This document shows, piece after piece, positions 11,685 to 28,711 of a stretch of DNA of 64,000 nt. Where the stretch lies: positions 486-64,485 of the forward strand of contig CAMHJC010000001.1 of NCBI GenBank assembly GCA_946185345.1. Direction: 5' to 3'. Numbering within the stretch: the first letter of the stretch is position 1; every line of letters begins with the position of its first letter. The stretch is from an uncultured Clostridia bacterium (GTDB lineage: Bacteria > Bacillota > Clostridia > Oscillospirales > Acutalibacteraceae). The translations under genes were made by a program, and so were the position numbers. Below the pieces are notes generated by a model. It did no database searches, was not told the DNA's origin, and saw only the letters and a list, made by a program, of their open reading frames with translations.

Positions 11685-12206
11685 CTATCTGCGCCACAGC
11701 CTTCGCGCAAAAGCGGCAAGCTTTTCAAAAATCAGTACTGTATACTTATCATTTCTTCCGCTGTGCAGGATCACTCCCTCGAGCGAAAGAAACAAAAGCC
11801 ATAAATCAAGAATCACGGGTGTTATCCCGCTGACATTTTTCGCAATCATCACCGCCAGGATGAAGACCGCGGATACGAGCAAAAGTCCCCATGACATGGC
11901 CCGTCGGCCGGGCATGCGGAAGGCCGCTCCGGCATGTGGATGACCGGACGCTTTCGGTTCGGTCAGACGGCGCAGTCTGACGGTGGCGGCGCAGAAAACG
12001 GTGCCGCAGATCAGTCCTGCCCAGAAGATGCCGGCCGCAATGTACAACGCGGCGGAATGTTCATTGGTTTCCACCGAAATCACCAGCGGAATCAGCAGAA
12101 TCGAACAAACCGATACAAAATAGCCTGCCGCGGCAAGGGCATAATACAGCAGATGCCGCCTTTTGAGGGAGGATTCACTCTTATTGGTTTGATTGCTCAA
12201 GCGCAA
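11685..12206 (-). CDS. Hypothetical polytopic membrane protein (about 4 TM)
   Basis: 173-aa ORF with hydrophobic segments YYALAAAGYFVSVCSILLIPLVI, LYIAAGIFWAGLICGTVFCA, WGLLLVSAVFILAVMIA and ILDLWLLFLSL. It begins 4 nt after the upstream gene ends. No family recognised. Confidence 0.55.
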   Translation of the reverse strand: MRLSNQTNKSESSLKRRHLLYYALAAAGYFVSVCSILLIPLVISVETNEHSAALYIAAGIFWAGLICGTVFCAATVRLRRLTEPKASGHPHAGAAFRMPGRRAMSWGLLLVSAVFILAVMIAKNVSGITPVILDLWLLFLSLEGVILHSGRNDKYTVLIFEKLAAFARRLWRR

Positions 12207-12210
12207 CGCC

Positions 12211-13017
12211 TCATTCTATAACTTCGTCAGTGTGTATTTCCACCATGCTTCTCACTATGCGGAAGGAAACGGCGGCAGGATTGACGGGCTGCTCGGATAC
12301 GCCTTCCAGCACGGTAGTGCCTGCGCCCCGGTCTTCCCCGGAAAGCTCCGTGAGCTCCACGGCATCCGAGCCGGTGAGCAGAGCGGTTCCCTCTTCGTGG
12401 AGAGCCTCTTTGCTTCCCGTGAGAAGGGCGGTTCCTTCATCGGAGCAGATGCCTTTGGTGCTGTTGCCCGTGAGCAACGCCGTACCTTCCTGATCGTCAT
12501 CCGGCGCACCCATCGTTTCATATTCATTAGGTTCGGGAAGCTTCTGTGTCGGGGGACGGTTGGAAATTGCGGACTTTTCTCCGTAAAGCTCGCCGGTGGT
12601 CGGCTCCTCTTCCTCCGCAGAATAACCCGCCTGTTTAAACGCCTGCGGATTCAGCGATTCGCTGGTCTTGTCGAGTCTCTTTGAAGCGTGCGCAACAGGA
12701 ACGGCGCCGGGGGCCGGTACTCCGTATGCCTGAACGGAAGGCGCGGACATATTGGACGGCATGGCGCCTGAATTGCCGACCTGCTGTGTCAGCTTGCCTC
12801 TGGCAGCATTGACGCTGCTCGGACGGTGAAGCTTGGCGCCGCTCGCCGAATTATTCTCACGCATGGCCTTGATCTCACGGGCGACTGTTTTGCCCGTAAG
12901 ATCACCGATAACGGACGGAATCTTAAGCTTGATGAATATCAGGATTGCCGCTATCAGCGCTATTCCCGACAGCAAAAAGCCTACTATCGAAATGATATTC
13001 CAGGTTTGTGCGCTCAT
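12211..13017 (-). CDS. Bitopic membrane protein with a disordered tail carrying reiterated E-G-T-A-L-L-T-G motifs
   Basis: N-terminal TM is IISIVGFLLSGIALIAAILIFI. The Pro/Ser-rich tail has 3 x EGTALLTG and 1 x AGTTVLEG (aa 177-239). It is 2 nt from the kinase gene stop. Confidence 0.7.
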   Translation of the reverse strand: MSAQTWNIISIVGFLLSGIALIAAILIFIKLKIPSVIGDLTGKTVAREIKAMRENNSASGAKLHRPSSVNAARGKLTQQVGNSGAMPSNMSAPSVQAYGVPAPGAVPVAHASKRLDKTSESLNPQAFKQAGYSAEEEEPTTGELYGEKSAISNRPPTQKLPEPNEYETMGAPDDDQEGTALLTGNSTKGICSDEGTALLTGSKEALHEEGTALLTGSDAVELTELSGEDRGAGTTVLEGVSEQPVNPAAVSFRIVRSMVEIHTDEVIE

Positions 13018-13019
13018 AA

Positions 13020-14783
13020 TCAGTTCTCCTTATTTTTAAATGCGTTGGCAATGGCTTTTCTGGCGACGGGCAGTTTCTCCTTGACCTTGTCTACTTTAGG
13101 ATTAAAGCTCTCGTCGTTGGACGTTACTTCGTCAATCTCCCTCAGATAATCCTCCACAGAATCCAGAAGATCGGTCATTTCTTTCCTGGACACGTTATCT
13201 CTGCTGAATTTATGGGCATACTGAATGATGGTCGACACCGTCAGACGGCAGGCCTCCAGATCCATTACCTCATCGTCGGCATTGTCTTTTCTGGCTTCTT
13301 CCACAATCAGGCTGATATTCTTCCACTGATTTTTAAAGGTATTCTGCGGAATATCTCCTTCTTCAAGCTGGAACTCGATCGAAGAGATGAAATCACCGGT
13401 CTGGTTAAAGAGCTTTGCCTTGTAATAAAATTCGTCGCTCTTGGAAGAATGTGATACGGCTTCGCCGAACCAATAGGTGGCGCTTTTTCTGCGGGTGATA
13501 TCGTTTTCGGAACTGTTCCCGTTCTCATCCTGGCCGTAATCATAATAACCCCAGTACAGCTTTCCGATCTCATAAGAAAGCTTGCCGTAAAAATCGGTTT
13601 TATTGAGCCAGCTGAGGCTTCCCTGTTTATTGTCGGATTGATTGGTGTCCTGATTTTCGTCATCCTTGAGGTGCAGCACATTCAGCAGCACCTTCTCCTC
13701 ATCCTGGGTGAAGGATCTGTCTGCCTTAAAGGTATCGATCAGTGTGAAATAGGCATCGCTTCTGTCGGGAATGATTTTGATGGCGTTGGTGTAGTACTCC
13801 ACCTTTTTATCGTAATCGCTTTCCTCATTGCCGAGCCGGAAATTATTGTCGTAGTCCTTGTCGTTGATATATGTCTTCATGACAAGACCGACAATGCCCA
13901 CTATCAGAAACAGCAGGCAGGCGGCAGAAGTCGCAATGAAGGCCCCCAGCTTTTTCTTTTGAATTTTTCTGTACGCTGCGCCGTTTTCATGATAATGCTG
14001 CAGCGCATAAAGCAGCTCGGCGCATGACTGGTATCTGTCATTGGGATTGAGCTGTGTACACTTTTCGATAATGGCCTCAAAGCCCGGATCGAGCTGCGGA
14101 TTCCAGTATCGGATGGGATAGATTTCATAAGGCGGTTCACACGGATTTTTACCGGTAACCAGATGATACAGCGTAACGCCGAGACAGTACACATCGGTAC
14201 GGGCATCGGTCTGGCCCTTGCCTCCGAACTGTTCCGGAGCGGCATAGCCCTTGGTGCCGAGACTCACCGTATCGGCAAGGCTGTGATCCTTGTATTCACG
14301 GGCGATACCGAAGTCGATGATCTTGATGTTGCCGTCAGGTCTGAGCATGACGTTGGACGGCTTCATATCACGGTAAATGATAGGAGGCTTGCGGGTGTGG
14401 AGATACTCGAGCGCTTCGCATATCTGCATGGCCCACTCGATAACAAGCTCCTGAGGCTGCGCACCGTTCTGCTTGAGAATGGTGTTGAGCGTTTCGCCTT
14501 CTATGTAGTCCTCGATGATGTAAATGTAATTCGGATCCTCTAAGATATCCACGATTCGCACGATGGCGGTATGATCCAGCTGCTTAATCATATTGGCCTC
14601 GGCAATGGCGCTCTGGACAACGATTTCGTTGGCCTTGTCCCTCGTCTTTTTCGGCACTATCTTGATGGCCCACTGTTTATTGAGGCGCCTGTCTCTTGCG
14701 AGAAACACCTCGGACATGCCGCCTTTGCCTATCGACGTAAGTATTTCGTACTTGTCGTCAATGACTTGTCCCACAAAGTTCAA
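13020..14783 (-). CDS. Transmembrane Hanks-type Ser/Thr protein kinase with helical (TPR-like) extracytoplasmic domain
   Basis: G-loop GKGGMSEV, WAIK lysine, catalytic loop YRDMKPSN, DFG, AAPE. One TM (FIATSAACLLFLIVGIVGLV). About 290-aa C-terminal non-PASTA domain. Confidence 0.9.
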   Translation of the reverse strand: MNFVGQVIDDKYEILTSIGKGGMSEVFLARDRRLNKQWAIKIVPKKTRDKANEIVVQSAIAEANMIKQLDHTAIVRIVDILEDPNYIYIIEDYIEGETLNTILKQNGAQPQELVIEWAMQICEALEYLHTRKPPIIYRDMKPSNVMLRPDGNIKIIDFGIAREYKDHSLADTVSLGTKGYAAPEQFGGKGQTDARTDVYCLGVTLYHLVTGKNPCEPPYEIYPIRYWNPQLDPGFEAIIEKCTQLNPNDRYQSCAELLYALQHYHENGAAYRKIQKKKLGAFIATSAACLLFLIVGIVGLVMKTYINDKDYDNNFRLGNEESDYDKKVEYYTNAIKIIPDRSDAYFTLIDTFKADRSFTQDEEKVLLNVLHLKDDENQDTNQSDNKQGSLSWLNKTDFYGKLSYEIGKLYWGYYDYGQDENGNSSENDITRRKSATYWFGEAVSHSSKSDEFYYKAKLFNQTGDFISSIEFQLEEGDIPQNTFKNQWKNISLIVEEARKDNADDEVMDLEACRLTVSTIIQYAHKFSRDNVSRKEMTDLLDSVEDYLREIDEVTSNDESFNPKVDKVKEKLPVARKAIANAFKNKEN

Positions 14784-14798
14784 TGCTCTTCAACCTCC

Positions 14799-15572
14799 TC
14801 AGACTGCCTTAATCAGCAAAGCCGTTATGTTGTCGTTTTCGTGACGGTATTTATTCAGATCAATCAGCTGCACGATATGCGACTCCATCTCCTGCTCTGA
14901 GTGATTGACAGACGGGCCGAGTGTCCTGGCAATTTCCTCCGCCGTGATCTCGTGGCGGAAGCCGTCCGAACAGAGCATATAACATTCTCCGGAATTCGCC
15001 CTGCCGTAATAGAAGGCCGGCTCGACTGTCCTTGAAGCGCCTACGCACTGAAGAAGCACATTCCGGCGGGGATCCTTTTCGGCCGCTTCGGGAGTAAGTC
15101 TGCCCTTCTGAATTTCTCTGGCGACAAGGGTCTGATCCTCGGTAAGCACTTCGGCGTTGGAATCGGTGATGCGGTAGGCTCTGGAATCGCCCACATGACC
15201 GATAATATACCTTCCGTTTTCGAGAATCAGCATGGCGGTCACGGTAGAACCCAGCTGAATGCGAAAACGCTCACCGTATTCCGAAATAATCTGATTCTGC
15301 TGCCGGATCATCCTTCCCCATGAATAGGCCACGTCTCCGATGACGTTATCGCCTGAGAGAAATGCAGGGAATTCATTTTCGAACCAGTCGCAGAAAGCTT
15401 TGATCACGGCAGCGCTCGCCACTTCGCCCTTGGACAATCCGCCCATACCGTCACAAATGACTGCGAGAAGGATATTTCCCTTGTCGGTGACGGCCTGCTT
15501 GATGCAGCAGCTATCCTGATTTGTTTTTTTCTGAATGCCTACGTCTGTACTTAACGAGAGGTTAAATTCCAT
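14799..15572 (-). CDS. PP2C-family Ser/Thr phosphatase
   Basis: Motifs TDVGIQKKTNQDS, CDGMGG, VGDSRAY, LCSDGF and DNITALLI. Confidence 0.9.
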   Translation of the reverse strand: MEFNLSLSTDVGIQKKTNQDSCCIKQAVTDKGNILLAVICDGMGGLSKGEVASAAVIKAFCDWFENEFPAFLSGDNVIGDVAYSWGRMIRQQNQIISEYGERFRIQLGSTVTAMLILENGRYIIGHVGDSRAYRITDSNAEVLTEDQTLVAREIQKGRLTPEAAEKDPRRNVLLQCVGASRTVEPAFYYGRANSGECYMLCSDGFRHEITAEEIARTLGPSVNHSEQEMESHIVQLIDLNKYRHENDNITALLIKAV

Positions 15573-15584
15573 TTAAACACCTGC

Positions 15585-16892
15585 TTATTCAACGTAAAAT
15601 GTAAATTTTTCATTTGCCAGAAGTATCTCAGAACCCGAAAAGACTTCCACTTCGGTTTCTCTTTTAATCACTCTGCCGTCAACATAGGTTTTGTTGGTGG
15701 AATTTTTATCCACCACATAGAAGTGATTTCCTCTGGTGACGATATCCGCATGGCTTCTGCTGACATAACTGTTGTCCGACACGAAATAATCGCAGTACTC
15801 TCTTTCGCTGCCTATGCGGAACACCGGTTTATCCACCGGTATTTTCTCACGGCTCTTTTCCCTGATAAGGTAAGGATAAGCCGGCGCAGGCAGTTCGTCA
15901 CACCCCAGCACCACGGTGCCTCGTCTCTCGTTGTATCCAAGAACAACCGTACCCGAAGGAGGCGCCTGGCCGGCCGCCGGATCGGGATCAATCTGATCCC
16001 GGACAGGTGTCGGAACCTGATTCCGTGTCTGAACAGGAGACGGAGCCGGAGTCTCAGCCGGAGTCTGAGCGGCGCCTTTGTCGGATACTCCGCCGGCGGT
16101 TCTGCCGCCGTTGACGCCGTTCGGTTTGACCAGCGGCTTGCCGCAGAAGGAACAGTAGCTGGATTCGATGGTGTTTTTTGTGCCGCAGTACATACAGAAA
16201 AGCGTGCGTCTTTTTTCTTCGATGATCTTTATCCTTCGCTTTTCGTCAAAGGGGTTGTATTCGATTCCCTGAGGAGTCTCACGGCTTTTCTGGTCCTTCG
16301 GTTTTTCTCTGAGCTGATCGGAAGGCGCCTGATAACTGTATTCTTCTTTTCTGCCCATCAGATACTTAATCAGACGCTGGAAATTATTGATGGAAAAAGG
16401 CGCTCCGCTGCTGAAGAAGGCGTAATAGCTGTTGAGAAAGCCCATGTTTTCTCCCGGAATGAAGCTGAAAAACCCCGGCAGCTGATGAAAGAACAAGCCC
16501 TTTTCCTCGTAATTATAATTATTCAGAACCGGCCAAAGTATACATCTGACGGTACCCTGCGGATCAAGAAAAATTCTGTCCGGATCCAGGTCAATATGAT
16601 TGCTGCTCAGTCCCAGATCCTCACATTTTTTGATGATATTGATCAGCTGATCCACTACCTTGAGGAAGTAGGTTTTGTTGACAGAGTACCCGTTATTGTG
16701 CGACACAGGATTCAGTCCCTGCACAATACACTCAAGCACGGTTGTCTTGCCGCTCTTTTTTACGATGACCGGCAAAAAGGCCCCCAGCGAAGAGCTTACA
16801 TTCAGTTCCCGTTCATATAATACTTCAGGATATGTAAATTTATTTGTTATGATGATTCTGCCTGATGTGATTTTTGTCGTTATTTTACTCAA
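15585..16892 (-). CDS. Pseudokinase-like N-domain + zinc-ribbon + Pro-rich linker + C-terminal FHA domain protein
   Basis: The N-domain has a degenerate catalytic-loop-like stretch NHIDLDPDRIFLDPQGTVRCILWP. Zn ribbon is CMYCGTKNTIESSYCSFCG. The linker carries SGTVVLG and RGTVVLG. FHA motifs are FRIGSE, SRSHA and STNKTYVDG. Confidence 0.8.
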   Translation of the reverse strand: MSKITTKITSGRIIITNKFTYPEVLYERELNVSSSLGAFLPVIVKKSGKTTVLECIVQGLNPVSHNNGYSVNKTYFLKVVDQLINIIKKCEDLGLSSNHIDLDPDRIFLDPQGTVRCILWPVLNNYNYEEKGLFFHQLPGFFSFIPGENMGFLNSYYAFFSSGAPFSINNFQRLIKYLMGRKEEYSYQAPSDQLREKPKDQKSRETPQGIEYNPFDEKRRIKIIEEKRRTLFCMYCGTKNTIESSYCSFCGKPLVKPNGVNGGRTAGGVSDKGAAQTPAETPAPSPVQTRNQVPTPVRDQIDPDPAAGQAPPSGTVVLGYNERRGTVVLGCDELPAPAYPYLIREKSREKIPVDKPVFRIGSEREYCDYFVSDNSYVSRSHADIVTRGNHFYVVDKNSTNKTYVDGRVIKRETEVEVFSGSEILLANEKFTFYVE

Positions 16893-16952
16893 TGGACATC
16901 ATCATTCCTTTATTCTGGCCTATAAATAGAGTTTGCCTGTCTTTCCGATCCG

Positions 16953-17270
16953 TCAGAACCATCTTCTGGACAGTCTTTCCGCTCTGTTGATCGCATTGAT
17001 CTGCGCATTCTTATACTGAGCGGCGGCAAACCGGAGGTATTCCGCATACGCAGTCAATGACTGTACCATAGCGGCATGCACTGAACTGCTATCATCTATC
17101 GTGTGCCATTTGGCCATGAACGCATCGTAATCAGAGCCTTTCCAGCCCGAAGAAAGCTCCTCCGCCGCCTGATTGGCTCTGTTCATGCCCTGATCGAGTT
17201 TTCTGACATATTCTTCAACTGCCTTGGCGGCGCCTTCAAAACAGCTGTGATCCACATAAATACTTGCCAT
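16953..17270 (-). CDS. WXG100-like small helical protein
   Basis: SGWKGS motif at mid-length. About 105 aa, predicted helix-turn-helix hairpin. ATG at 17270 is preferred (GAGGTG upstream); the track start is 17279. Confidence 0.7.
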   Translation of the reverse strand: MASIYVDHSCFEGAAKAVEEYVRKLDQGMNRANQAAEELSSGWKGSDYDAFMAKWHTIDDSSSVHAAMVQSLTAYAEYLRFAAAQYKNAQINAINRAERLSRRWF

Positions 17271-17296
17271 TTCATTCACCTCATATATATGCTGAA

Positions 17297-17602
17297 TTAC
17301 TTAAACGCATCCGCCAGGGATGTATTCTGCTCTTCAACGCTCACATAGCCTTTGGCTATCAGTTCATGAAGCGCATTGACATAATTCTGCATCGTATTGT
17401 ATCTCGGCTGGCGACAGCTTTTCATAATGCTTTTGAATGTCCCTATAGCGTGCTCCGCTGCGGGACCCTGCCATGATGAATCGAGCCTTGCCATACTATT
17501 CCTCATCACAGAATCGACATCATCGTCAAGCCTGCTGTTGATGACATCAATCGTACTTGCCGTAGAGTCAACAATGTCTGTATTGACATACATTTCGTCC
17601 AT
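17297..17602 (-). CDS. WXG100-like small helical protein
   Basis: SSWQGPAAE motif. The C-terminal EEQNTSLADAFK resembles the tail of the EsxA-like protein (AEAQNISIAEAFR). ATG 17602 follows GGGAGG. Confidence 0.7.
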   Translation of the reverse strand: MDEMYVNTDIVDSTASTIDVINSRLDDDVDSVMRNSMARLDSSWQGPAAEHAIGTFKSIMKSCRQPRYNTMQNYVNALHELIAKGYVSVEEQNTSLADAFK

Positions 17603-17748
17603 GATAATACCTCCCGTCAGTATTATTATCATACTTAATAACTATATCACAATATATCTGTTTTACTGTAAAATCGTATCATTGAATAACCGCATCATGG
17701 CAGCAGGTTATTGTATGCATACCATTTTACTCCAAAACAGCGGCGGAG

Positions 17749-17988
17749 TCAAGCTTCACTTGTCTCCATATCGGCCATTACTTCTGAAATGTTGATGTTG
17801 CTTAATCTGTTATAGACTTTTTCGTAATTGCGGGCGACATCCGTAATGGCGCCGGCGCACATCTCCGTACCGATTCCCTGAAAATTCTCACCCCGGAGAT
17901 CTTCCGCAATTCCGTAAAGATCTTTGATGATTCTGCTCAGATCATTCTTGATATCACGTATCTGTTCCTTTGCTTCATATTCTGTCAT
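17749..17988 (-). CDS. 79-aa helical hairpin protein (FQG in place of WXG), putative effector partner
   Basis: ATG 17988 follows GGAGG. The track start at 18066 would overlap the upstream gene. Central ENFQGIG turn. Sits directly downstream of lipase effector 2. Confidence 0.55.
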   Translation of the reverse strand: MTEYEAKEQIRDIKNDLSRIIKDLYGIAEDLRGENFQGIGTEMCAGAITDVARNYEKVYNRLSNINISEVMADMETSEA

Positions 17989-18010
17989 ATAAAACAACCT
18001 CCTCGCATCT

Positions 18011-19519
18011 TTACATTGCGCCGGTGATAGTTGATTCCACCGCATCAAATTCCCTCGCCGTATCATTCAGATAGGATACGCACGACGCCAGCAGTCCGCT
18101 TCCGTTGGTTCTGATGTCTGCCGCCATTAGATTCCATTTATCAAAAAGATTCAGGGCGGAATACAGTCTGTCCATCCTGTCGTCTATGGATACCAGTTTT
18201 TTGTTGATTCCGGCCAGTTTAGTGGCATATTTTGTCAGCTTGCCCGTATCCACTCTGATTTCGGTGTAGGACTGGGCGTAGATGTATCCTTTGTTGAAGT
18301 TGGAATTATACCACTCTTTGATGTTATTATAAATAGTCTGGATGGCGTCTTTGAATTCCCTGACTTTTTGCTTTGTCCAGTTGTACGCGGTTTCGAGCAT
18401 ATTGGCAACGCCTTCGATCACGTTGTTGATGAATTCCGTTACCGCCTCGTAAACGTATTCATAGGCATATGCCACAATCGCCGCCACGATGATGGCCGCC
18501 ACCTCCGCCATGATGAGCGAAGTGATATTGAGTTCCGTGAGAACAAGAATGGTGCCTATCAGATTAATCACGCCGTTAACCGAAATATTGCCGTCTTCAT
18601 CATACAATATATCAAGTCCGGCGGTTGTGACAATCATCAGATCAGCCGCAATCCATTTGATCTTGTTTCCGATAATCGAAGGCATATGGTCCACGCCGAG
18701 GGAAATCTTCTGCGTGATCCTGGAAAGGGTGTCCTGTTCGCCTTCGACCAGCGAATCGCCGTCGTAATCAAGATATTTTGTATCATGCCGGTTAAATGAA
18801 TTATATTTGTCGTCGTCCCTGTTTCTCACAGCCACATAGTGATACTCGCAATCCGGCAGGTCATTGAGCAGGTTGCCGACAAAGCTCCACCGGTAATGCT
18901 TCATTTTGGGACTCATATGGGCGATCTTATCCTTGTATTTTTTCAGAAACTCGCCCGAAAAACCAGGGCCGTCGAGACTGACGCACTGTGTGATATTTCC
19001 GTCGAGGCCGTACTCTTCCGAGACGATGGTGGCGTATTCCGCCAGATTGCCGCCCAGTGAATGGCCGGTCATACAGAGTTCATTATATCGGCTCAGAAGC
19101 TCCTTGTTTCTCTTCAGAAAATTTCTTACCTCACGCTGCTGCTTTGTGCAGGTCTCATTGATCAGCAGGATATCGGCTTCCGTCCAATCATGGATACCGT
19201 TGGCCAGTGAGGTGAGAGCTTCACTTCCTCTGAAGCCGACCACGCCGGCGCCGTCCGGCGTCTCCATCACGCAGCAGCTGAAGCCGTTTTTGTCATTGGT
19301 ATCGTGAACGGCGACGATTTTCCAGTCGTCGATATCACTGGCAAGCTCGTTTTTGATATAGTTGTAAATCCTCAGATTGTCTCCTGTCAGTCTTTTGGCA
19401 ATTTCCTTGAAGGTGAAGCTGGCGTTTTTTCCCATTTTTTCCATTGCTTCCTGAAAGAAGGAATCGAGATGCATATACGCCACCTGAGAGGCGGCCACCA
19501 TTCTTTTATCCGACTGCAT
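18011..19519 (-). CDS. Putative T7SS lipase/esterase effector 2: N-terminal alpha/beta-hydrolase (DUF2974-like, GHSLGG) + hydrophobic middle + C-terminal LXG-like helical domain
   Basis: Nucleophile elbow is GHSLGGNLAEY. Hydrophobic stretch is IMAEVAAIIVAAIVAYAY. The C-terminal about 110 aa (IRVDTGKLTKYATKLAGINKKLVSIDDRMDRLYSALNLF...) is homologous to the tail of the 20262-21773 product. Confidence 0.7.
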   Translation of the reverse strand: MQSDKRMVAASQVAYMHLDSFFQEAMEKMGKNASFTFKEIAKRLTGDNLRIYNYIKNELASDIDDWKIVAVHDTNDKNGFSCCVMETPDGAGVVGFRGSEALTSLANGIHDWTEADILLINETCTKQQREVRNFLKRNKELLSRYNELCMTGHSLGGNLAEYATIVSEEYGLDGNITQCVSLDGPGFSGEFLKKYKDKIAHMSPKMKHYRWSFVGNLLNDLPDCEYHYVAVRNRDDDKYNSFNRHDTKYLDYDGDSLVEGEQDTLSRITQKISLGVDHMPSIIGNKIKWIAADLMIVTTAGLDILYDEDGNISVNGVINLIGTILVLTELNITSLIMAEVAAIIVAAIVAYAYEYVYEAVTEFINNVIEGVANMLETAYNWTKQKVREFKDAIQTIYNNIKEWYNSNFNKGYIYAQSYTEIRVDTGKLTKYATKLAGINKKLVSIDDRMDRLYSALNLFDKWNLMAADIRTNGSGLLASCVSYLNDTAREFDAVESTITGAM

Positions 19520-19523
19520 GCCG

Positions 19524-20243
19524 TCACGCTCCTATTGATTCTTCCATTTCGGCAGGCGTCACCGAACTGACGCCGTTATCTATCAGCACATTCTGCATTC
19601 CGAGCGGATCATAATTCTGAATGGCTGCCAGCGTCACGCCGGGATAATCCTCCATCTCCTGCCGGCAGGGTTCATAGGCATCCTCCCGCATGGCAAAAAC
19701 CAGTGCGCCCAGGTCGATCTCCAAAGATTTCCCTGTGTCGATCAGAGCGTTCAGCACCTTTTCGCCGTAATTATCTCCCGGAATAAATATCAGCCGCACA
19801 TGGAACCGCTCTATGCCGTGCCTGCTTAAGAATTCACTGACGCTGATGCCGGTATCGGTTTCACTGACGCTGTCGGCTATATACACTTCAGAAGCGCCGG
19901 TCAGGCCTGACTTCTGAAGATGGCCGTCAATCACTCTCTCCACTTCACGGCATTTGAGAGCGGTGACGTAATTTTCCGTAATGGTGCCGTCCTTGTCAAT
20001 GGTGGCGGTAAACACCAGATCGGGGTCGTTTTTGGGAACAATGTAAAGAAGCGCATGGCTTGTATTCAGTCTGTCGCCGATGTGTGTCGCGGTAAATTCG
20101 CAGCCATAGACATTTTCCAGATAACTGCACACCTTGTCAGCCGTAGGTTGATTGATTTCCAGACATGCGCCCATTCCGATCATCATGCCCAAAGCCATAA
20201 TAATTCCTCCGATACGAATGATAATCCGACTCATTTTTTTCAT
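19524..20243 (-). CDS. Lipoprotein, putative immunity protein (paralog of 21787-22446)
   Basis: Lipobox in signal MKKMSRIIIRIGGIIMALGMMIGMGAC. Shares YLENxY..(K/E)F and GT(I/F)(T/S)(E/D)NY motifs with the other lipoprotein. Its stop is 4 nt from the effector 2 start. Confidence 0.65.
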   Translation of the reverse strand: MKKMSRIIIRIGGIIMALGMMIGMGACLEINQPTADKVCSYLENVYGCEFTATHIGDRLNTSHALLYIVPKNDPDLVFTATIDKDGTITENYVTALKCREVERVIDGHLQKSGLTGASEVYIADSVSETDTGISVSEFLSRHGIERFHVRLIFIPGDNYGEKVLNALIDTGKSLEIDLGALVFAMREDAYEPCRQEMEDYPGVTLAAIQNYDPLGMQNVLIDNGVSSVTPAEMEESIGA

Positions 20244-20261
20244 AACAAGTCCCTCGTAAGA

Positions 20262-21773: not shown

Positions 21774-21786
21774 TGTTACACACTCC

Positions 21787-22446
21787 CTATCTTATTACAG
21801 TATTCAAAGGCGGTACGGAACTGTAGCTGTCAACATACTGATCCACGCTTTCCTGACTGTCCAGCGCTCCGTACTGCTCCGGAGCAAGCGGATATAACGC
21901 CACATAGCCCCCGAAATGCTCCGACTGAAGATCAGAACAGACAGCATCAAAAAGCTTCTGATCCTGTCCGGCTGACGACGGAACGAGAATGTGGATGTCC
22001 GTCCTGAAATGCTCGGGATATCTGACACGATAGCTGTCGAAGTCGTCCATATCCACCGCTTCGTCCGGAAAATAGGACGAAGTGAAATAAAACGTAAATT
22101 TCGCATCCTGTATATGCCTGTTCAGGATGGTCTGTATTCTGTCGCGGCAGACGGCTTTTGCCATAATGCCGTAATAATTATCTGAAAATGTCCCGGAATC
22201 CCGACACACTACTATTTTCTCGTTTGGATATGCGTCAGAAGAAAAAAGGATCTCAGCGTAAGGTATATCCATGCTCGGATAAATCACCGTCACCAGGTCA
22301 AACTTCTGATGGTATTTGTTTTCCAGGTATTTCTGCGCCTCACCCGCAAAATCGTAATTCTTATCCATACAACCGCTCACTCCCGAAATCAAAATTATCG
22401 CTACGGTCAGAAAAATACTTATGATTGATTTTCTTGCCAAATTCAT
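21787..22446 (-). CDS. Lipoprotein, putative immunity protein
   Basis: Lipobox in signal MNLARKSIISIFLTVAIILISGVSGC. Lies immediately upstream of effector 1. Confidence 0.65.
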   Translation of the reverse strand: MNLARKSIISIFLTVAIILISGVSGCMDKNYDFAGEAQKYLENKYHQKFDLVTVIYPSMDIPYAEILFSSDAYPNEKIVVCRDSGTFSDNYYGIMAKAVCRDRIQTILNRHIQDAKFTFYFTSSYFPDEAVDMDDFDSYRVRYPEHFRTDIHILVPSSAGQDQKLFDAVCSDLQSEHFGGYVALYPLAPEQYGALDSQESVDQYVDSYSSVPPLNTVIR

Positions 22447-22575
22447 ACTCCGACATTCCTATCCGTTACTTCATCATAAGGCTGCTTACAGGCATACAGG
22501 CAACAGCCGGGAATTACAGCTTAGGTAAAACTTCCCGACTGTCGCCAATACGTGTAGAATAATCGAGGATGCTGA

Positions 22576-22884
22576 TTATCTGAATGCTTCAGCAATGCTG
22601 ATATTCTGTGCTTCAGCGGCGTCATAACCTTCGGCTACATTGGCTCTGAGGAATTTGACATATTCGTTGATGATATCCTCGTACAGCTGGAAGAACTTTG
22701 AGGCAAACTCATTGTATGCGTCAATGGTGGAAGCGGAAGCTTCACCTTCCCAGATATTTGCCAGATGATCTACGGTTTCCTTGCTGCGCTGGAGCTCTTC
22801 TGTGAGCTTTTTATTCAGACTTTCAAGCTGGCTTGCGATCTCAAGCACTTGATCTGTACTTATTCTGATACTGTTACCGGCCAT
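22576..22884 (-). CDS. esxA: WXG100 protein (EsxA-like)
   Basis: 102 aa. Central IWEGEA (WXG) motif, two-helix layout, GGAGG-type RBS. Confidence 0.85.
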   Translation of the reverse strand: MAGNSIRISTDQVLEIASQLESLNKKLTEELQRSKETVDHLANIWEGEASASTIDAYNEFASKFFQLYEDIINEYVKFLRANVAEGYDAAEAQNISIAEAFR

Positions 22885-22906
22885 GTAATTTCACCTCCGT
22901 AAAAAA

Positions 22907-23212
22907 TTAGTTTGTCAGCTTACCTACCTGTGTGATGTTGTCATCCTGACGGGCAACATAGTTGGCTCTCTGCTTGTCAAGCGCTTCGCTTGCAAGAGCG
23001 AGCTTCTCCGCCATTTTCTTCAGCTCCTCGGTAAAACCGGTAATGCGCTGAACATAAGCGAGATTGTCAGCACCGTCCCAGGCGCTGCCCATGGTGCTTG
23101 CAGCCTGCATCAGCTGAGTGTAAATCTGTGTATAATTCTCGGAACTTGCGCGAAGCTTCTGCGACGCGGCAGCCATCTCCTCAAATGATGCAACATAGAT
23201 TGTTTTTCCCAT
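22907..23212 (-). CDS. WXG100 protein (second paralog)
   Basis: SAWDGAD motif. ATG 23212 follows AAAGGAGAA; the track start is 23233. Confidence 0.8.
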   Translation of the reverse strand: MGKTIYVASFEEMAAASQKLRASSENYTQIYTQLMQAASTMGSAWDGADNLAYVQRITGFTEELKKMAEKLALASEALDKQRANYVARQDDNITQVGKLTN

Positions 23213-23241
23213 AACAAGGTTCTCCTTTCGCAAAAATTGAA

Positions 23242-23499
23242 TTATATCAGCATGAGCCGGGAGCCGTTATGTATGCCAAGCTCCGCAACAATCATGTTAA
23301 TATTGTAAATAATGCCTGTGTCGGCGTCGCACAATACCGCATCACGCGACGCCTTGTATTCTCCTCCGGAGAGATCGCTGAGCGCGCTTGCGACAAGCTG
23401 CACAACTTCGCTCATTCTGCTCTCGAGAGGAATGAACACGTCAAATGTTTCTCCCGACGCGGGAACGGATATTTCAACCAAAGCTTTGTTACTCAGCAT
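23242..23499 (-). CDS. esaB: YukD/EsaB-like ubiquitin-fold T7SS protein
   Basis: 85 aa. The pattern ...FDVFIP....M.EV.......L......(long loop)....L.ELGI.NGS.LMLI is typical of YukD. Overlaps the essC stop by 11 nt. Confidence 0.75.
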   Translation of the reverse strand: MLSNKALVEISVPASGETFDVFIPLESRMSEVVQLVASALSDLSGGEYKASRDAVLCDADTGIIYNINMIVAELGIHNGSRLMLI

Positions 23500-26400
23500 C
23501 TTCTTCCTCCGTTTTGCTCTTCAGCAGCTTAATCTTGACGCACTTGCCCTTCTGCATGACATAGCCGAAGCCGGAGCCGATCGGTTTGCGCAGCTCAGGC
23601 GTCATGGTGGTCGGCTTCAGATAGAACTGGTCAGAGAAGCCGTTGCCTATCCATATGCCGTCCACCTGCGATACATTCTGTTTGTACCACTTCTCGTACG
23701 ACACAGCTGAAATGGCGTTGATCTGCTCGGCGATGACGATATTGATCCTGTAATCGACACTGCCTTTTTCCAAAATCAGCGACAGCCGTTCGTTGGCGTC
23801 CTGACTGAGCACGCCTTTGAGGGCGGCCAGCGAATTGATGATGACAAATACGCTTTCAAACGCCTCGGGATCCTGTCCCGCCGCCAGAGCATCCTTGTAG
23901 GTGTTGTTTCTGTAGAGCACCAGATCAAAGAGCTTTCGCACTTCGCTCTCGCAGTCCTTGGCCGAATTGCAGAGCGTCAGCGTGCCGGTGGGAACGGAAA
24001 CGGATTTGGGCGCATCAAAAACGACGCCCTTTACCACTTCGGTTGTACCCGCCAATTCCGCAAAATCGGCGATAAAATCCTGATATTCATTGCCGGAGGA
24101 ATGAACCATATTGATATAGGCCGCTCCGAAGGGGTAATAGCAGACATTGAGGGTGCTTTTTTCCATACCGACAGGAATCCGGATCCTGTCATTCGGGCGG
24201 ATATATCCCCGCAGGAATTCAACATCCACCTTCTCGGGGAGAATGGGAACCCTCTTGGCGACTTCGCCTTTCCACGAGGCGCTGACCTTGCGGCAGTCGT
24301 CACGGATAAAGGCAAAGGGTACGCTCTCGTCGGTCAGGCTGGCCGCCTGGAATTCATACAGCGCTTCCTGCCGGATAAGGCCTCTGCCCTTGATTTTGGC
24401 AGGATAAAGACCCTCGGTCTTGCCCACAACGGAGGAATAATCCGATTCGTCGTTGAGCTGCATTACCAGGAGCTGCTTGAAATTCTGAAGCATTCTGAAT
24501 TTGACACTCGTTGTGCCGAGGGCGGTGAGTACAAAATAAATGCCGTACTTGGTGCCTTCACGGGAAAGGAATGCCACGGCCTCCTCCCGGTCGCTGTATG
24601 TCTCGGTAAACGCGGAGAAATTGTTGATGGCCACCACTATGGACGGCAGAGTTTCTCCCGAAGTGCCGATATAGGAGCTGTAATCGCCGCCGTAATTGGC
24701 AAAGAGCTTTTTGCGCCGTCCGGTCTCTTCGAGCAGCATCTTGAAGAGATTGCCTACCTTCTCGGCTTCATAGGAAAGGATCACATCGCCCACATGAGGC
24801 GCATCGGCAAATGCCCTGAGCGTCTCGGATGCGAAATCGAGTATGTAAAGGTTGACTTCGTCGGGCGTGTGCTCGTGAATGAGCGAATAGATCATTGCGT
24901 TGAGGAATGTGGTCTTGCCGCTTCCCGCAACACCGTAGACCACGGCGTTGCCTTCTTCGGATATGGGAAGCCGCAGCACGCACTGCCTCTGGTTGGCCGG
25001 ATCGTCAAGCTCGCCGATGACGGGATTGAGCTTGAATCGTTCGGATACGACCGAGTATTTCTTCTTGACGTCTTCCATCATGATCACGGCAGGAATAGGC
25101 TCGAGCCAGAGCGGTCTGATCTTAATGCCTTCTTCCTCGGCGGTTTTCTTCAGATATTCAGTGATAACGTCAAGCTGCTTTTTGGCGTTGCCTCCGGCAT
25201 TCTTTCTGCCGGGCTTTACTTCTTTGATAACGTGTCCGTTGCGGTCGATGACGGCAACGCTGTTGTCTTTTTCCTTGACGACCGTTTCAGAGGGATAGTA
25301 CGGCGCTCCCGACCATGCAGACTGTCCGAGTTCAAACAGCTCGTTATAGCCGACCTGAAGATAGAAACGTCCGGTATCGGTCAGCTCGGCGGCGTCGGGA
25401 CGCTTGAGCATATCCATACTGTCGGCACGCTCCTGCACCTTGAGACACACACGGAACTTACTGTTGCTCCATATCTGATCGTCAACCACGCCGCTCGGCT
25501 TCTGGGTCGCCAGTATCAGGTGAACGCCAAGGCTTCGGCCGATACGGGCGGCACTGACCAGCTGGGTCATGAATTCCGGCTGCTGGGTTTTCAGCTCGGC
25601 GAACTCGTCGGAGATGATAAACAGATGCTGCAGCGGCTCCTCCACGGTGCCTTCCCTGTAGAGCTTCTGATACTTGTAGATATCGATGTTGCTGACGCCG
25701 ACCTTCTTGCTGGCGTCGGCAAAAATCGCCTGTCGGCGCTTCAGCTCACTCTCGATGGAAACGAGCGATCTCTTGATGGCGGCGCCGTCGAGATTGGTGA
25801 TAATGCCGGCGGTGTGCGGCAGATGTTCAAATGACTTCGCCATGCCGCCGCCCTTGTAGTCGATGAGGATAAAGGCCACCTCGTTGGGGTGATAATTGAC
25901 GGCCAGCGAAAGAATATAGGTAATGATAAACTCGGATTTACCCGAACCGGTCATACCCGCGACCAGACCGTGAGGGCCGTGGAATTTTTCGTGCAGATCA
26001 AGCTTGAAGGTCTCGCCGAGGGTATCCACACCCACAGCGGCTTCAAGAGATTTGGTGGGATCATTGTCTCTCCATCTCGCCAGGGCGTTGAGATGTTCGA
26101 CCATGCCGACTCCGAACATTTCCAGGAAGGTCAGCGTTCTGGGCAGCTTAAAGCTTGTCGCGCTGTTATCCAGCGTGATATTGGCAAGTCTCACGCTCAG
26201 GTCGAGCGGATCCTGCAGCGGCTTTATGTCAGGGAAAAATTCCGTGCTCTTGCCGGAAATGTCGTTTTTGTCAAAGAGTCTCGCTCTGTTGCCCGACAGC
26301 TCGACCACCATGGAACATTCCTTGGGCAAATCCTTCAGCTCGTCATAGATGGATATCACGCTGATGTTGAGATTTTCCTTCTTGGCGAGCACCTGTTTGA

Positions 26401-28042
26401 CCACTTCCGTGTGAACCGCCAGCGTCTTGCTCATGGAGAATATGATGAAATAAGGAGATGTGTCCTTGAGATCATTCTCATTCATGGCAATGCGGGCCTC
26501 GACAATATTCTCAAGATAGGCGGAAAGTTCCTTCGCCTCGTTGTTGTTGGTGGCGATAAAGCGGAATTTATTGTCGTCGTTCCAGACATGCGGGAGCCAT
26601 TTGACAAATCCGAATTCATCCTCATCATCAATGTCATACAGGAACACCAGCTTGACTTCGTCATAGCTGTAGAGAGCCGACAGCTGAATAATCAGTCCCT
26701 TGGCGAATTCAGCCGCCTGCTGCTTCTGGCCTATGATACCCGAAATGTGATCTTCCGCCAGTGAATAGGTAATGGGTATGTTGTGAAGCTCCTTGGGTCT
26801 TTCGCACAGGATGTACATTTCCTCTTCCAGAATGTCGTCATCCGTGGAGAACCTGCGTTCGGAATAGGAAAACTCGGCGTCAAGAAGTCCGCTGCCGTGG
26901 CCGACTCTCACTCTGAGAAAATCATTCTGTCCCGGAGCGCGTTCCCACAGATTTCTCTGGACGTTTCTGATGCGGTTTTCACACTCCCCGACGGTAATGC
27001 AGTTCTCATTGAGGATGGAAACCTGTTCCTGGCTCGCCTCGTTGATTTTAACGGAGAGATGATTGAGGTATTCCCTGTATTTTTTCTGCCGGATGACTTC
27101 CTTTTCCTTTTTCCTCCGGCGCTCATATGTCTTGATCAGCATCGGCATGAGCAGCGTGCCGATCATCATGCTTCCGCCCATTACCATAGACATCACATTG
27201 CCGGTAATCGCGGCGTTTGTCACTGTCACTACCGACATCATGCCCATGGCCATCGAGGAACCGATCACCAGAGGCCACGGCATTTCCTCCGTAACGGGAC
27301 TGCTGGGAGGAGAATCAATTTTGAATTCCGCCGTTTCAATGTCTCTCTTGAATCTCGGGGAACGGTAAAAGAAATCCGGATCCCTGAGCTCGTATTCCTC
27401 CTCGTCATCCGACTCGGCTACCGGCTGGCTGATATACCGCTGCAGCTTGGCCGAAGCGGTAACCCTGCCGTCAGGATTATTAAATGCGATAAAATTCTTT
27501 CCTATTATAATCTTAAGGCCCATAATAAAGACCACATCGCCCACATAAAGCTCCGCTTTTTCTATTCTGGCCTTATTGACGAATGTTCCGTTGGTACTGC
27601 CGTTGTCAAAGATGTACCAGTGGCCGGACTTATAGGACAGCACCGCATGCCCGGAAGAAACAAAACTGTTGCTGAAACAGATATCGTTGCGCTCGTTTCT
27701 TCCTATAAAGATATCGACATCGTTTTCCACCAGATATTTGCTGAATTCCTGTCTGTCATCGGTAACAGGCTCGGTAAACACAAAAATCTTTTCTTTATTC
27801 TGCTTGGAAAGCACGTAAATACTCATGGGCTTTGCCACTGTATTCTTAAGCACGTTCTCCTTGCCGTCAGTCACCTTTACGGTGCGGTTTGACTTGAGCA
27901 CCCACTTGTCGCTGATGCCTTCAATGCCCACCAGTCTCATCGGGCCATTATCGGTTTCCTCATACAGCCAGTATCTGCCGGTAATTTTGTCAGGCAGCGA
28001 CACCGTATTCAGATATGACTTGGTAATCGTAGTAACAATCAT
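23489..28042 (-). CDS. essC: EssC/YukB-type FtsK-SpoIIIE T7SS ATPase with N-terminal FHA domains
   Basis: N-terminal FHA (GRNERNDICF...SSGHA...STNGTFVN), then 2 TM helices, then three P-loop ATPase domains (GMTGSGKSEF, GVAGSGKTTF, and a degenerate third). ATG 28042 is preferred (MIVTTITKSYL...; GGAGAAG upstream). The track start is 28114. Confidence 0.9.
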   Translation of the reverse strand: MIVTTITKSYLNTVSLPDKITGRYWLYEETDNGPMRLVGIEGISDKWVLKSNRTVKVTDGKENVLKNTVAKPMSIYVLSKQNKEKIFVFTEPVTDDRQEFSKYLVENDVDIFIGRNERNDICFSNSFVSSGHAVLSYKSGHWYIFDNGSTNGTFVNKARIEKAELYVGDVVFIMGLKIIIGKNFIAFNNPDGRVTASAKLQRYISQPVAESDDEEEYELRDPDFFYRSPRFKRDIETAEFKIDSPPSSPVTEEMPWPLVIGSSMAMGMMSVVTVTNAAITGNVMSMVMGGSMMIGTLLMPMLIKTYERRRKKEKEVIRQKKYREYLNHLSVKINEASQEQVSILNENCITVGECENRIRNVQRNLWERAPGQNDFLRVRVGHGSGLLDAEFSYSERRFSTDDDILEEEMYILCERPKELHNIPITYSLAEDHISGIIGQKQQAAEFAKGLIIQLSALYSYDEVKLVFLYDIDDEDEFGFVKWLPHVWNDDNKFRFIATNNNEAKELSAYLENIVEARIAMNENDLKDTSPYFIIFSMSKTLAVHTEVVKQVLAKKENLNISVISIYDELKDLPKECSMVVELSGNRARLFDKNDISGKSTEFFPDIKPLQDPLDLSVRLANITLDNSATSFKLPRTLTFLEMFGVGMVEHLNALARWRDNDPTKSLEAAVGVDTLGETFKLDLHEKFHGPHGLVAGMTGSGKSEFIITYILSLAVNYHPNEVAFILIDYKGGGMAKSFEHLPHTAGIITNLDGAAIKRSLVSIESELKRRQAIFADASKKVGVSNIDIYKYQKLYREGTVEEPLQHLFIISDEFAELKTQQPEFMTQLVSAARIGRSLGVHLILATQKPSGVVDDQIWSNSKFRVCLKVQERADSMDMLKRPDAAELTDTGRFYLQVGYNELFELGQSAWSGAPYYPSETVVKEKDNSVAVIDRNGHVIKEVKPGRKNAGGNAKKQLDVITEYLKKTAEEEGIKIRPLWLEPIPAVIMMEDVKKKYSVVSERFKLNPVIGELDDPANQRQCVLRLPISEEGNAVVYGVAGSGKTTFLNAMIYSLIHEHTPDEVNLYILDFASETLRAFADAPHVGDVILSYEAEKVGNLFKMLLEETGRRKKLFANYGGDYSSYIGTSGETLPSIVVAINNFSAFTETYSDREEAVAFLSREGTKYGIYFVLTALGTTSVKFRMLQNFKQLLVMQLNDESDYSSVVGKTEGLYPAKIKGRGLIRQEALYEFQAASLTDESVPFAFIRDDCRKVSASWKGEVAKRVPILPEKVDVEFLRGYIRPNDRIRIPVGMEKSTLNVCYYPFGAAYINMVHSSGNEYQDFIADFAELAGTTEVVKGVVFDAPKSVSVPTGTLTLCNSAKDCESEVRKLFDLVLYRNNTYKDALAAGQDPEAFESVFVIINSLAALKGVLSQDANERLSLILEKGSVDYRINIVIAEQINAISAVSYEKWYKQNVSQVDGIWIGNGFSDQFYLKPTTMTPELRKPIGSGFGYVMQKGKCVKIKLLKSKTEEEDAE

Positions 28043-28530
28043 TATACCTGCTTCTCCAATCGCAACTATCAGTATGAACGACGTACAATCATACAACGCA
28101 TTATTCAGAGACATGCTTATACATTCTCAATTTTATATTTTACATCGAGTTGCCAAAAATGTCAATATCTTTATAAAAGAAAGCATAATGTCGTAATTAT
28201 CGCAAGACTTCACTTATTAGACATAATTCACTCAATAAATACTGCTCAAATTTTAATAATCAAACTAACAAATCATCTTCAGACTTTCCTTTTTCTGCGG
28301 ATTAATCAAAAAAAAGCAATCAAAATCCGGCGATATTTTTGCACAGTGTCATATATCTTCGCTGTTTCCCATAGTTGCGTTTTTACAATCGGCTAGTTAA
28401 TTCATGAAAAAGAGGTGCGGTTTACCATCATTATTCATTTTTCAGTCTTAAGTTTTCCGTCTTAAGTTGGAAAATCCTGTCTTGGAAACCGAAGAATGAA
28501 AACTTAAAACTTAAAAAAGAATAATACAAA

Positions 28531-28570: not shown

Positions 28571-28572
28571 TT

Positions 28573-28665: not shown

Positions 28666-28711
28666 GAATGTGCTGACACAAAGTCAATATTATTAAATAA
28701 AAGAAAGGGTG

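Follow-up and report, generated by a model that had tools for sequence, protein, structure and literature searches.

A probable T7SSe-type secretion operon with a duplicated lipase cassette in an uncultured Clostridia bacterium

Introduction

The type VII secretion systems (T7SS) designated T7SSc to T7SSj were defined by EssC phylogeny in combination with gene neighbourhood (Garrett, Higginson & Palmer 2024, Microlife 5:uqae013; PMC11217815). [quoted passage not shown] Here, we describe an operon with this set of genes, except tseK, on a 64,000-nt stretch of DNA from an uncultured Clostridia bacterium (assembly GCA_946185345.1, contig CAMHJC010000001.1, positions 486 to 64,485), which is referred to as the window throughout.

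The published descriptions of the T7SSe components provide the frame for the comparison. TseC is an ATPase bearing FHA domains with conserved phosphothreonine (pThr) binding motifs, TseD a transmembrane (TM) kinase and TseF a PPM phosphatase; TseH consists of one TM helix and an unstructured cytoplasmic stretch, and TseJ is a cytoplasmic protein with DUF6382 and FHA domains (PMC11217815). TseI is large, with a Sec signal, Ig-like domains and a C-terminal TM helix, and was proposed as the analogue of EsaA, while TseK, with one TM helix and a zinc-ribbon protein as its best BLAST match, was stated to occur at all T7SSe loci (PMC11217815). Furthermore, 'reverse' lipase toxins were reported at a Neobacillus T7SSe locus (PMC11217815).

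In an initial annotation, the operon was taken for a stripped-down version of T7SSb, the subtype of the Ess system of Staphylococcus aureus and the Yuk system of Bacillus subtilis. According to our analysis, it is instead with good probability a T7SSe-type type VII secretion operon of an uncultured Clostridia bacterium, working by the phospho-gated mechanism proposed below. The T7SSe architecture was published in 2024, and as a new secretion architecture the locus does not stand. The value of the finding is incremental since the subtype is already described; the minor variants are the lack of TseK, an extra family of proteins with four TM helices (4-TM) and a duplicated lipase cassette. T7SSe together with a lipase-toxin cassette occurs in uncultured gut and rumen-type Clostridia; the genes are ordered as in soil Bacillales, and the ATPases share 61–66% identity.

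The ATPase and the secretion core

The ATPase gene tseC (23489–28114; all operon genes lie on the minus strand) encodes an EssC-family FtsK/SpoIIIE ATPase which matches the model TIGR03928 with 1074 bits against a cutoff of 778 and carries FHA and two FtsK_SpoIIIE domains. Its residues 25–760 share 56% identity, end to end and over 700 amino acids, with the published TseC reference, as opposed to 31% with TsdC, 27% each with TsiC and TsjC, 25% with S. aureus EssC and 24% with TsfC. The references, one per subtype, represent the N-terminal ~700 residues given in Fig. S2 of PMC11217815; as they were taken from PDF text with some character recognition errors, the identities are slightly underestimated. 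By BLAST, identities of 61–66% were obtained with EssC of Neobacillus and Bacillus, and the nearest EssC among 5.8 billion proteins was 77% identical.

The FHA region further separates this ATPase from T7SSb. In the second FHA domain (residues 125–215; 27470–27742) the pThr-binding motifs IGR, SSGH and STNG (GR / SxxH / NG) are intact. These three motifs are conserved in 98%, 99% and 90% of TseC proteins and in 0%, 0% and 21% of TsbC, the EssC of T7SSb (Table S1, PMC11217815). Although the best PDB match of the ATPase is YukB (E = 8.8e-131, residues 243–1023), its FHA region resembles by sequence the pThr-binding FHA domains of Rv1747 and GarA and not the FHA of YukB among the PDB sequences. 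The true start of TseC is probably Met25 at 28042, which would make the listed open reading frame (ORF) 24 codons too long: about 120 homologues cover 98% of the ORF, and it is at Met25 that the alignment with the published TseC reference begins. The 24-codon extension (28042–28114) creates a spurious hydrophobic segment at residues 13–31.

The three genes following tseC complete the secretion core. TseB (23242–23499) is a YukD/EsaB-like ubiquitin-fold protein without a C-terminal Gly-Gly (PF08817, 28.9 bits, cutoff 27) and shares 66–75% identity with the product of the equivalent gene of Bacillales T7SSe loci. TseA1 (22907–23233) and TseA2 (22576–22884) were classified as WXG100 proteins by Pfam, NCBIfam and their motifs, WDG at residue 52 and WEG at residue 45, respectively.

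Extent of the operon and comparison with T7SSe loci

By ORF listing and translation, the gene string extends over about 24.1 kb, from a promoter-like site near 28165 to a hairpin near 3800, in the order tseC, tseB, tseA1, tseA2, two lipoprotein/lipase cassettes, three WXG100-like genes, tseJ, tseF, tseD, tseH, a 4-TM gene and tseI. The initially described minus-strand string is real, and each of its named gene calls was upheld by Pfam, NCBIfam and motif searches; this includes the FHA protein, the PP2C phosphatase and the TM kinase, all confirmed by family models. Its extent of 16.4 kb was too short. The end set at 11685 is followed by a gap of 64 nt and then by a gene on the same strand for a protein of 2542 amino acids, which adds 7.7 kb and leads to the hairpin at 3795–3833. 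Likewise, the intergenic gaps, given as mostly below 25 nt, include several larger ones (129, 116, 64 and 60 nt).

For comparison with relatives, 80 species-level loci were chosen from 211 confirmed relatives found by scanning a genome collection with a TseJ-homologue alignment; the genomes were GTDB representatives, the species of the window not being among them, and window proteins were compared by BLAST with the ORFs of these loci (numbered with the prefix L below). In Neobacillus sp. Marseille-Q6967 the order is EssC, YukD-like protein, two WXG100 proteins, a 246-aa protein, an Mbeg1 lipase, three small proteins, a DUF6382-FHA protein, PP2C, kinase, a further protein of 246 amino acids and a giant protein with Big_13, which is the same as in the window. 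The block of J, F, D, H and I genes is conserved in about 70 species-level loci from Bacilli and Clostridia. Thus, the window shows the traits of T7SSe in its TseC-group ATPase with a pThr-competent FHA domain, the paired WXG100 proteins with TseB, the kinase and phosphatase TseD and TseF, and in TseJ, TseH and TseI, as well as in a cassette of reverse-lipase and Lap-like partner genes placed between tseA2 and tseJ. It differs from the published subtype in the lack of TseK, in a conserved 4-TM gene between tseH and tseI which is confined to Clostridia-type loci, in the duplication of the lipase/immunity cassette and in a zinc ribbon within TseJ.

With T7SSb, the operon has in common an EssC-family ATPase, an EsaB/YukD protein, an EsxA-like WXG100 protein, cassettes of toxin, immunity and Lap genes and, as predicted by modelling, an EssB/YukC-like pseudokinase fold, here in TseJ. 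As initially noted, EssA, EssB/YukC and EsaA are absent by sequence: their Pfam and NCBIfam models matched none of the operon products or other large ORFs of the 64-kb window, which encode housekeeping proteins (among them Tgt, QueA, H+-PPase, GlgB and a radical-SAM enzyme), and EssB/YukC had no match among the operon products in PDB sequences either. In contrast to T7SSb, where it has a membrane anchor and an extracellular domain, the pseudokinase-like domain is here a soluble one joined to FHA; pThr-binding residues lost in T7SSb are retained in the FHA domain of the ATPase, and a kinase/phosphatase pair with intact catalytic motifs is encoded. The layout does differ from yuk and ess, as had been stated; it is not an unrecognised one, being that of the T7SSe of 2024.

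Kinase, phosphatase and TseJ

TseD (13020–14783) is a Hanks-type Ser/Thr kinase (Pkinase, E = 6.5e-55) with intact AIK, RDxKPxN, DFG and APE motifs, one TM helix (residues 283–301) and an extracytoplasmic helical domain of about 285 amino acids. It aligns with the S. aureus protein kinase domain 4eqm, with Mycobacterium tuberculosis PknB chains among the next-best matches, and is about 50% identical to Neobacillus TseD over 99% of its length; no TPR match was found with Pfam. TseF (14799–15572) is a PPM/PP2C Ser/Thr phosphatase of the Stp1/IreP type (E = 1.6e-48; DGMGG, GDSR, SDG and DNIT motifs). Taken together, the two proteins share 50–58% identity with their Neobacillus counterparts over 99–100% of the length, and both are predicted to be active enzymes from their intact catalytic motifs.

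TseJ (15585–16892) is a soluble protein of 435 amino acids, in which no TM helix was found. It is composed of a DUF6382 domain (residues 1–180; 16353–16892), a zinc ribbon detected by Pfam (residues 232–254; 16131–16199), a linker with two GTVVL repeats (residues 314–329; 15906–15953) and an FHA domain (residues 340–435; 15588–15875; E = 7.7e-14). DUF6382 remains below the Pfam cutoff in the window protein (E = 0.003–0.008) and is present in 21 of 21 aligned homologues. In a structural search with a model of full-length TseJ the FHA matches swamped the result, and the N-terminal domain was modelled again alone. The AlphaFold2 model calculated from the 21-sequence alignment reached a pLDDT of 90.6 and a pTM of 0.87 and was compared with 350,542 PDB chains. 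Its three best matches were the TraF N-domain of pIP501 (8cba, E = 2.9e-7, TM-score 0.54), B. subtilis YukC/EssB (6z0f_A, E = 1.6e-5, TM-score 0.55) and chain 9qks_C from the T7SSb core unit of B. subtilis (E = 2.0e-5, TM-score 0.56), with true kinases behind at 0.40–0.48. Structural homology of TraF to EssB/YukC was described recently.

DUF6382 is thus best read as a compact, soluble EssB-type pseudokinase fold, predicted by modelling and joined via zinc ribbon and linker to FHA. In the open literature searched, DUF6382 is mentioned only in PMC11217815, where the link to EssB is not drawn. The suggestion that the 435-aa protein might be a diverged EssB consequently holds for the fold of its N-terminal domain and fails in other respects, as no sequence signal is present and the protein is soluble and fused to FHA.

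Two observations concern relatives of TseJ. The zinc ribbon of Clostridial TseJ (FCMYCG...CSFCG) is similar to the separate ribbon of TseK (FCRNCG...CPKC; L021:4239-4478), while Neobacillus TseJ gave no zinc-ribbon match in Pfam. This likeness may reflect domain shuffling between J and K, yet both occur together in some loci. In Neobacillus sp. Marseille-Q6967, a second, stand-alone DUF6382-FHA gene (L021:10001-11155; 384 amino acids, 34% identity to window TseJ) is found some 5.5 kb downstream, past opposite-strand genes that separate it from the T7SSe locus.

Threonine repeats in TseH and TseJ

The cytoplasmic tail of TseH contains four G-T-x-[LV]-L repeats at residues 178–237 (12307–12486), three times GTALL and once GTTVL, and the linker of TseJ contains GTVVL twice. 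Of the 17 operon proteins, no others carry the motif. In homologues drawn from the loci L002 to L082, the pattern GT.[VILG]L was found 152 times in 70 TseH sequences as compared to 3.0 expected (maximum 9 in 500 shuffles) and 46 times in 31 TseJ sequences as compared to 0.86 expected from shuffles, an enrichment of about 50-fold. Carriers are 45 of the 70 TseH homologues, with 1 to 12 copies each, and 28 of the 31 TseJ homologues, with 1 to 2. Within the TseJ linker, T315, L318, G325, T326 and L329 are at least 90% conserved, the linker being otherwise variable.

Work of Durocher and colleagues from 2000 is said to show that FHA domains select the residue at position pT+3, often Ile or Leu. 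Because FHA domains read pThr with such a +3 residue, the repeats are plausible as substrates of TseD and as multivalent sites at which the FHA domain of TseC could dock. They are not mentioned in the T7SSe paper (PMC11217815) and are, as far as can be told, unreported.

TseH, the four-TM protein, TseI and TseK

The 268-aa protein encoded at 12211–13017 has an N-terminal TM helix (residues 11–29) followed by a disordered cytoplasmic tail, and full-length homologues occupy the same position in Neobacillus, other Bacillales and Clostridia loci. On these grounds it is assigned as TseH, a conserved T7SSe component, and not, as first assumed, as an unrelated filler of a vacant niche.

Between tseH and tseI, a gene at 11685–12206 encodes a 173-aa protein with four TM helices. 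Its family always occupies this place: seven positional homologues were found by phmmer, and one profile iteration extended them to 25 of the 80 loci. All members are about 150–175 amino acids long with some four hydrophobic helices and conserved FW.GL and LSF.LHC..NG.NY.Y motifs, and they occur in Clostridia-type loci only, with none in Bacillales loci; 13 relatives were present among 1.84 billion representative proteins. In Pfam searches with 24 members, neither EssA nor any other family was matched. Hence the protein is classed as a putative Clostridia-restricted accessory membrane protein outside the published T7SSe component list, rather than as a substitute for a core membrane partner as originally suggested. 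Three other explanations were discarded. A diverged EssA is contradicted by the four TM helices and by the lack of an EssA match in all 24 family members, a spurious ORF by the positional homologues in 25 loci, and a replacement of TseK by the presence of both genes together in L030, L034, L035 and L037.

TseI (3992–11620, probable start 11554) is a surface protein of 2542 amino acids with a Sec-type signal-like helix, repeated Ig-like domains (Big_13, Big_3_3, Flg_new_2) and a C-terminal TM anchor. A homologous giant gene lies at the same position downstream of tseH in about 60 loci. The proposed analogue of EsaA is therefore encoded in the operon, beyond the end that had been assigned to it, and the view that the niches of the T7SSb membrane partners are filled by the kinase, the 268-aa and the 173-aa proteins does not hold in this respect.

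Neobacillus TseK, a protein of 79 amino acids with a TM helix and a CxxC...CxxC ribbon, is encoded directly after tseI. Of 21 other loci in which the end of tseI is visible, 14 have tseK at this place and seven, all Clostridia-type, do not. The TseK-less layout of the window hence appears as a recurring sub-variant, because these seven loci also lack TseK directly after tseI.

Lipase cassettes

Two lipoprotein/lipase cassettes follow tseA2, in accordance with the two lipoprotein/effector pairs noted initially. In the first, a lipoprotein (21787–22446; lipobox VSGC and signal-like helix) is a candidate immunity protein, also by its position, for the predicted lipase toxin 1 (20262–21773), which has an N-terminal Mbeg1-like alpha/beta hydrolase domain (PF11187, E = 1.6e-12) with a GHSNG motif and a C-terminal helical region. 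The lipoprotein matched no family in Pfam or NCBIfam, and in loci L001 and L002 a gene is found at the same place upstream of the lipase. In the second cassette, the lipoprotein (19524–20243; lipobox MGAC) is the candidate immunity protein for the predicted lipase toxin 2 (18011–19519; Mbeg1-like / Lipase_3, PF11187, E = 3.7e-15, GHSLG). It shares 24–29% identity over 62–93% of the length with the product of the gene that precedes the lipase gene in Bacillales loci, and lipase 2 shares 28–35% identity over 87–100% of the length with lipases of Neobacillus and Bacillus loci and of the GCA_000703065.1 locus (L001). The C-terminal ~90 residues of the two lipases are closely alike.

Downstream, three small helical proteins (17749–18066, 17297–17632 and 16953–17279), present as described before, proved to be WXG100-like themselves (E = 0.01, 8.6e-6 and 3.8e-6), the WxG motif being kept in two of them (WQG and WKG). 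They are candidate Lap-type co-secretion partners, and the same trio lies downstream of the lipase in L001 and L002. The cassette of lipase, immunity and small-protein genes is thus common to the window and Bacillales loci, with the lipase/immunity part duplicated in the window.

The arrangement recalls the T7SSb-secreted TslA of S. aureus with TilA and TlaA1-2 (Garrett et al. 2023, cited in PMC11217815). Both have an N-terminal lipase with a C-terminal helical region, adjoining genes for small WXG100-like partners and a lipoprotein-type candidate immunity gene; three partner genes are present in the window, as against two for TslA. Further differences are that the window lipases match the SA1320 family model weakly (22–30 bits against a cutoff of 230) and that the window lipoproteins match no known family, DUF576 included.

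Proposed mechanism

In the proposed mechanism, TseC hexamers in the membrane would export the TseA1/TseA2 pair and also the lipase toxins, which, like TslA, would be recognised via a helical domain at the C-terminus to which the small WXG100-like partners bind. The lipoproteins would shield the producer's own membrane, and TseI may span the wall, as is thought for EsaA. Phosphorylation of threonine would gate assembly or activity: TseD would modify the repeats in the TseH tail and the TseJ linker, and the pT-x-x-L sites so formed would be bound by TseC through its canonical FHA domain, perhaps also by the FHA domain of TseJ. On the ATPase, the pseudokinase-like domain of TseJ would take the part of cytoplasmic adaptor that EssB has in T7SSb, where YukB is bound at its FHA domains by the YukC pseudokinase (PMC13037476). 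Finally, the PP2C phosphatase TseF would reset the switch.

A comparable logic of phospho-dependent assembly is described for type VI secretion under threonine phosphorylation control (PpkA/PppA/Fha1 of Pseudomonas aeruginosa and TssL-Fha of Agrobacterium tumefaciens; cited in PMC11217815), where a secretion operon likewise encodes a Hanks kinase of the membrane, a PP2C-type phosphatase and a reader with FHA. The machine is unrelated, the putative FHA reader here lies within the ATPase itself, and a dedicated one-TM protein carries multivalent GTxxL repeats as the candidate phospho-acceptors.

The J-F-D-H-I module is also found outside T7SS loci. In at least 20 of the 80 loci it directly follows Tad-type pilus genes; no EssC gene occurs there within 10 kb upstream or elsewhere in the covered range, which ends at tseI, so that an essC beyond tseI is possible. 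The genes before the module encode T2SSF, an A24 prepilin peptidase, a TadE-like protein, DUF5702 and a WG-repeat protein, and the module itself consists of a longer DUF6382-FHA protein, PP2C, kinase, a TseH-like, often a 4-TM and a TseI-like protein. Such Tad-linked loci were noticed within L051 to L079, for example L066:1-20324, L075:1-20363, L052 and L078:61-16721. In L078, the Tad genes, J and PP2C are followed by EssC, YukD and WXG100 in one string.

A broader proposal, in which T7SSe as a whole is phosphorylation-gated, TseJ keeps in its DUF6382 domain a soluble EssB-type pseudokinase adaptor, the FHA domains of the ATPase read multivalent pT-x-x-L repeats written by TseD on TseH and TseJ, and the kinase/FHA/TseH/4-TM/TseI module is portable to Tad-type pili of other Clostridia, is put forward tentatively and in our estimation is more doubtful than probable. 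If true, a portable phospho-gated module would link two envelope machines long noted as neighbours. Leads from the analysis are the EssB-like fold in DUF6382, the GTxxL repeats as candidate kinase targets and FHA docking sites, the unlisted four-TM component and the Tad-linked module.

Weighing of alternative interpretations

The assignment to a phospho-gated T7SSe has to be balanced against several findings that speak against it. TseK, stated for all T7SSe loci, was not detected when a 14-sequence profile was compared with all window ORFs of at least 20 amino acids (best E = 0.42), though its gene may lie elsewhere in the genome. The EssB likeness of TseJ exists at fold level only, with TM-scores of about 0.55, a root-mean-square deviation of 6–7 Å and 12–17% identity; a DUF6382 profile found nothing at E ≤ 10 among all PDB sequences, and Pfam detected on the N-terminal domain only DUF6382 and no EssB/YukC signal. 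The GR motif in the FHA domain of TseJ is without its canonical Arg (IGS in the window, IGK in the consensus), which makes pThr binding by this domain uncertain; instead of being a reader, TseJ may be a substrate. The C-terminal domains of the lipases gave no LXG or WXG100 match in Pfam. Moreover, the roles of the components beyond homology are, in any T7SSe, inferred from neighbourhood, and the J-F-D-H-I module may be a portable envelope-signalling cassette not dedicated to T7SS, because it also follows Tad-type pilus genes in loci where no EssC was seen within the covered range.

The last two points are the basis of an alternative in which the locus is composite: a minimal EssC/YukD/WXG100 unit with its lipase cargo would stand beside an independent, co-transcribed envelope module (DUF6382-FHA protein, PP2C, kinase, TseH, 4-TM protein and giant Ig-like protein) that serves a surface structure and is no mechanistic part of the T7SS. 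The Tad-linked loci, the gene order of L078 (Tad genes, J, PP2C, EssC) and the fact that neighbourhood is the sole basis of all component assignments in the literature (PMC11217815) are in its favour. We nevertheless consider it unlikely, as the module forms one contiguous stretch with tseC-B-A1-A2 in all Bacillales loci, and all close Clostridial ones, that have sufficient flank, and as the pThr motifs of the ATPase FHA domain are kept only in subtypes encoding a kinase, which argues for direct coupling. The resemblance of the TseJ N-domain to EssB and TraF, adaptors of T7SSb and type IV secretion, points in the same direction, and the limited coverage of the Tad-linked loci beyond tseI weakens the argument from missing EssC genes.

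The initial idea of a reduced T7SSb, which lost EssA, EssB and EsaA, substituted unrelated proteins and thereby acquired a previously unrecognised architecture, is very improbable. It can draw on the Firmicute EssC equivalog model, which the ATPase passes, on the presence of YukD and WXG100 proteins and on the missing matches to the three families in the window. However, the architecture is the published T7SSe with its own set of about ten components (PMC11217815), the N-terminal 700 residues of the ATPase are much closer to TseC than to S. aureus EssC (56% against 25%), and the FHA domain keeps the motifs which T7SSb EssC lost. The supposed replacements are conserved components across two bacterial classes and not ad hoc recruits, and an EssB-like fold is predicted by modelling in TseJ. 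Still less credible, and to be regarded as practically negligible, is an assignment to T7SSj, a related subtype restricted to Clostridium whose components include kinase, phosphatase, J, K and I. The host does belong to the Clostridia, and both subtypes have components A, B, C, D, F, I and J (PMC11217815). T7SSj, however, has one WXG100 gene and no TseH, while the window has two WXG100 genes and TseH. In our own reading of the Fig. S4 alignment, TsjJ shows TM-like hydrophobic segments, of which window TseJ has none, and TsjD has TPR, whereas none was detected in the window kinase, whose alignment with Neobacillus TseD extends over 99% of the length. With an identity of only 27% to the TsjC reference in addition, T7SSj was rejected, and the assignment to T7SSe is retained.

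Flanking sequences and genomic context

Upstream of the ATPase gene, a promoter region and a tRNA cluster are present as first described. The promoter-like site TTGACA-17-TAAAAT (28137–28165, minus strand) has 11 of 12 consensus matches and is a consensus match only; it is preceded by a cluster of tRNA genes for Leu, Ser and Ser (28573–28892) with its terminator (28527–28574). At the other end, a GC-rich hairpin past tseI (3795–3833, minus strand; -31.6 kcal/mol, z = -5.6), which a strict terminator scan missed and whose stability was revealed by folding, is probably the operon terminator.

By Tgt and the adjoining genes, the window belongs to an uncultured lineage of Clostridia, with 95% identity to 'Clostridia bacterium' metagenome-assembled genomes and 90% to Acutalibacteraceae. 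In sister genomes with 95% identical Tgt (L083:16270-20723, L084), the region leads from tgt to a DUF5685 gene and, after 234 nt, to uvrB, without tRNA cluster and T7SS. In the window (28573–31600), the DUF5685 gene is followed by the three tRNA genes and the 24-kb T7SSe operon, with the left junction beyond the window. The T7SSe locus looks like an accessory competition island in this lineage, arisen by insertion or rearrangement, because it is absent at this site in the sister genomes and the closest EssC is only 77% identical.

Downstream of the hairpin, convergent genes encode a LytTR two-component system, consisting of a LytTR-type response regulator (1505–2254, plus strand) and a multi-TM GHKL sensor kinase (2251–3585, plus strand). 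A LytR-like regulator is a listed component of T7SSi (PMC11217815). From position 1 to about 1000 (minus strand), the window contains the N-terminus of a serine-rich-repeat surface protein whose gene runs past the window start. It shows a KxYKxGKxW-like signal region (KKNGVWYNVKSK), E/K/T-rich 'EEVKAEE' repeats and then S-x-S-x serine-rich repeats, and is similar to the serine-rich-repeat adhesins of accessory Sec systems. On the other side of the operon, a radical-SAM/SPASM enzyme (34133–35653, minus strand) is the counterpart of the SCIFF-peptide maturase in syntenic relatives, where the maturase adjoins a 46-aa SCIFF gene (L083:12271-13893); the corresponding place in the window lies at about 35.7–35.9 kb.

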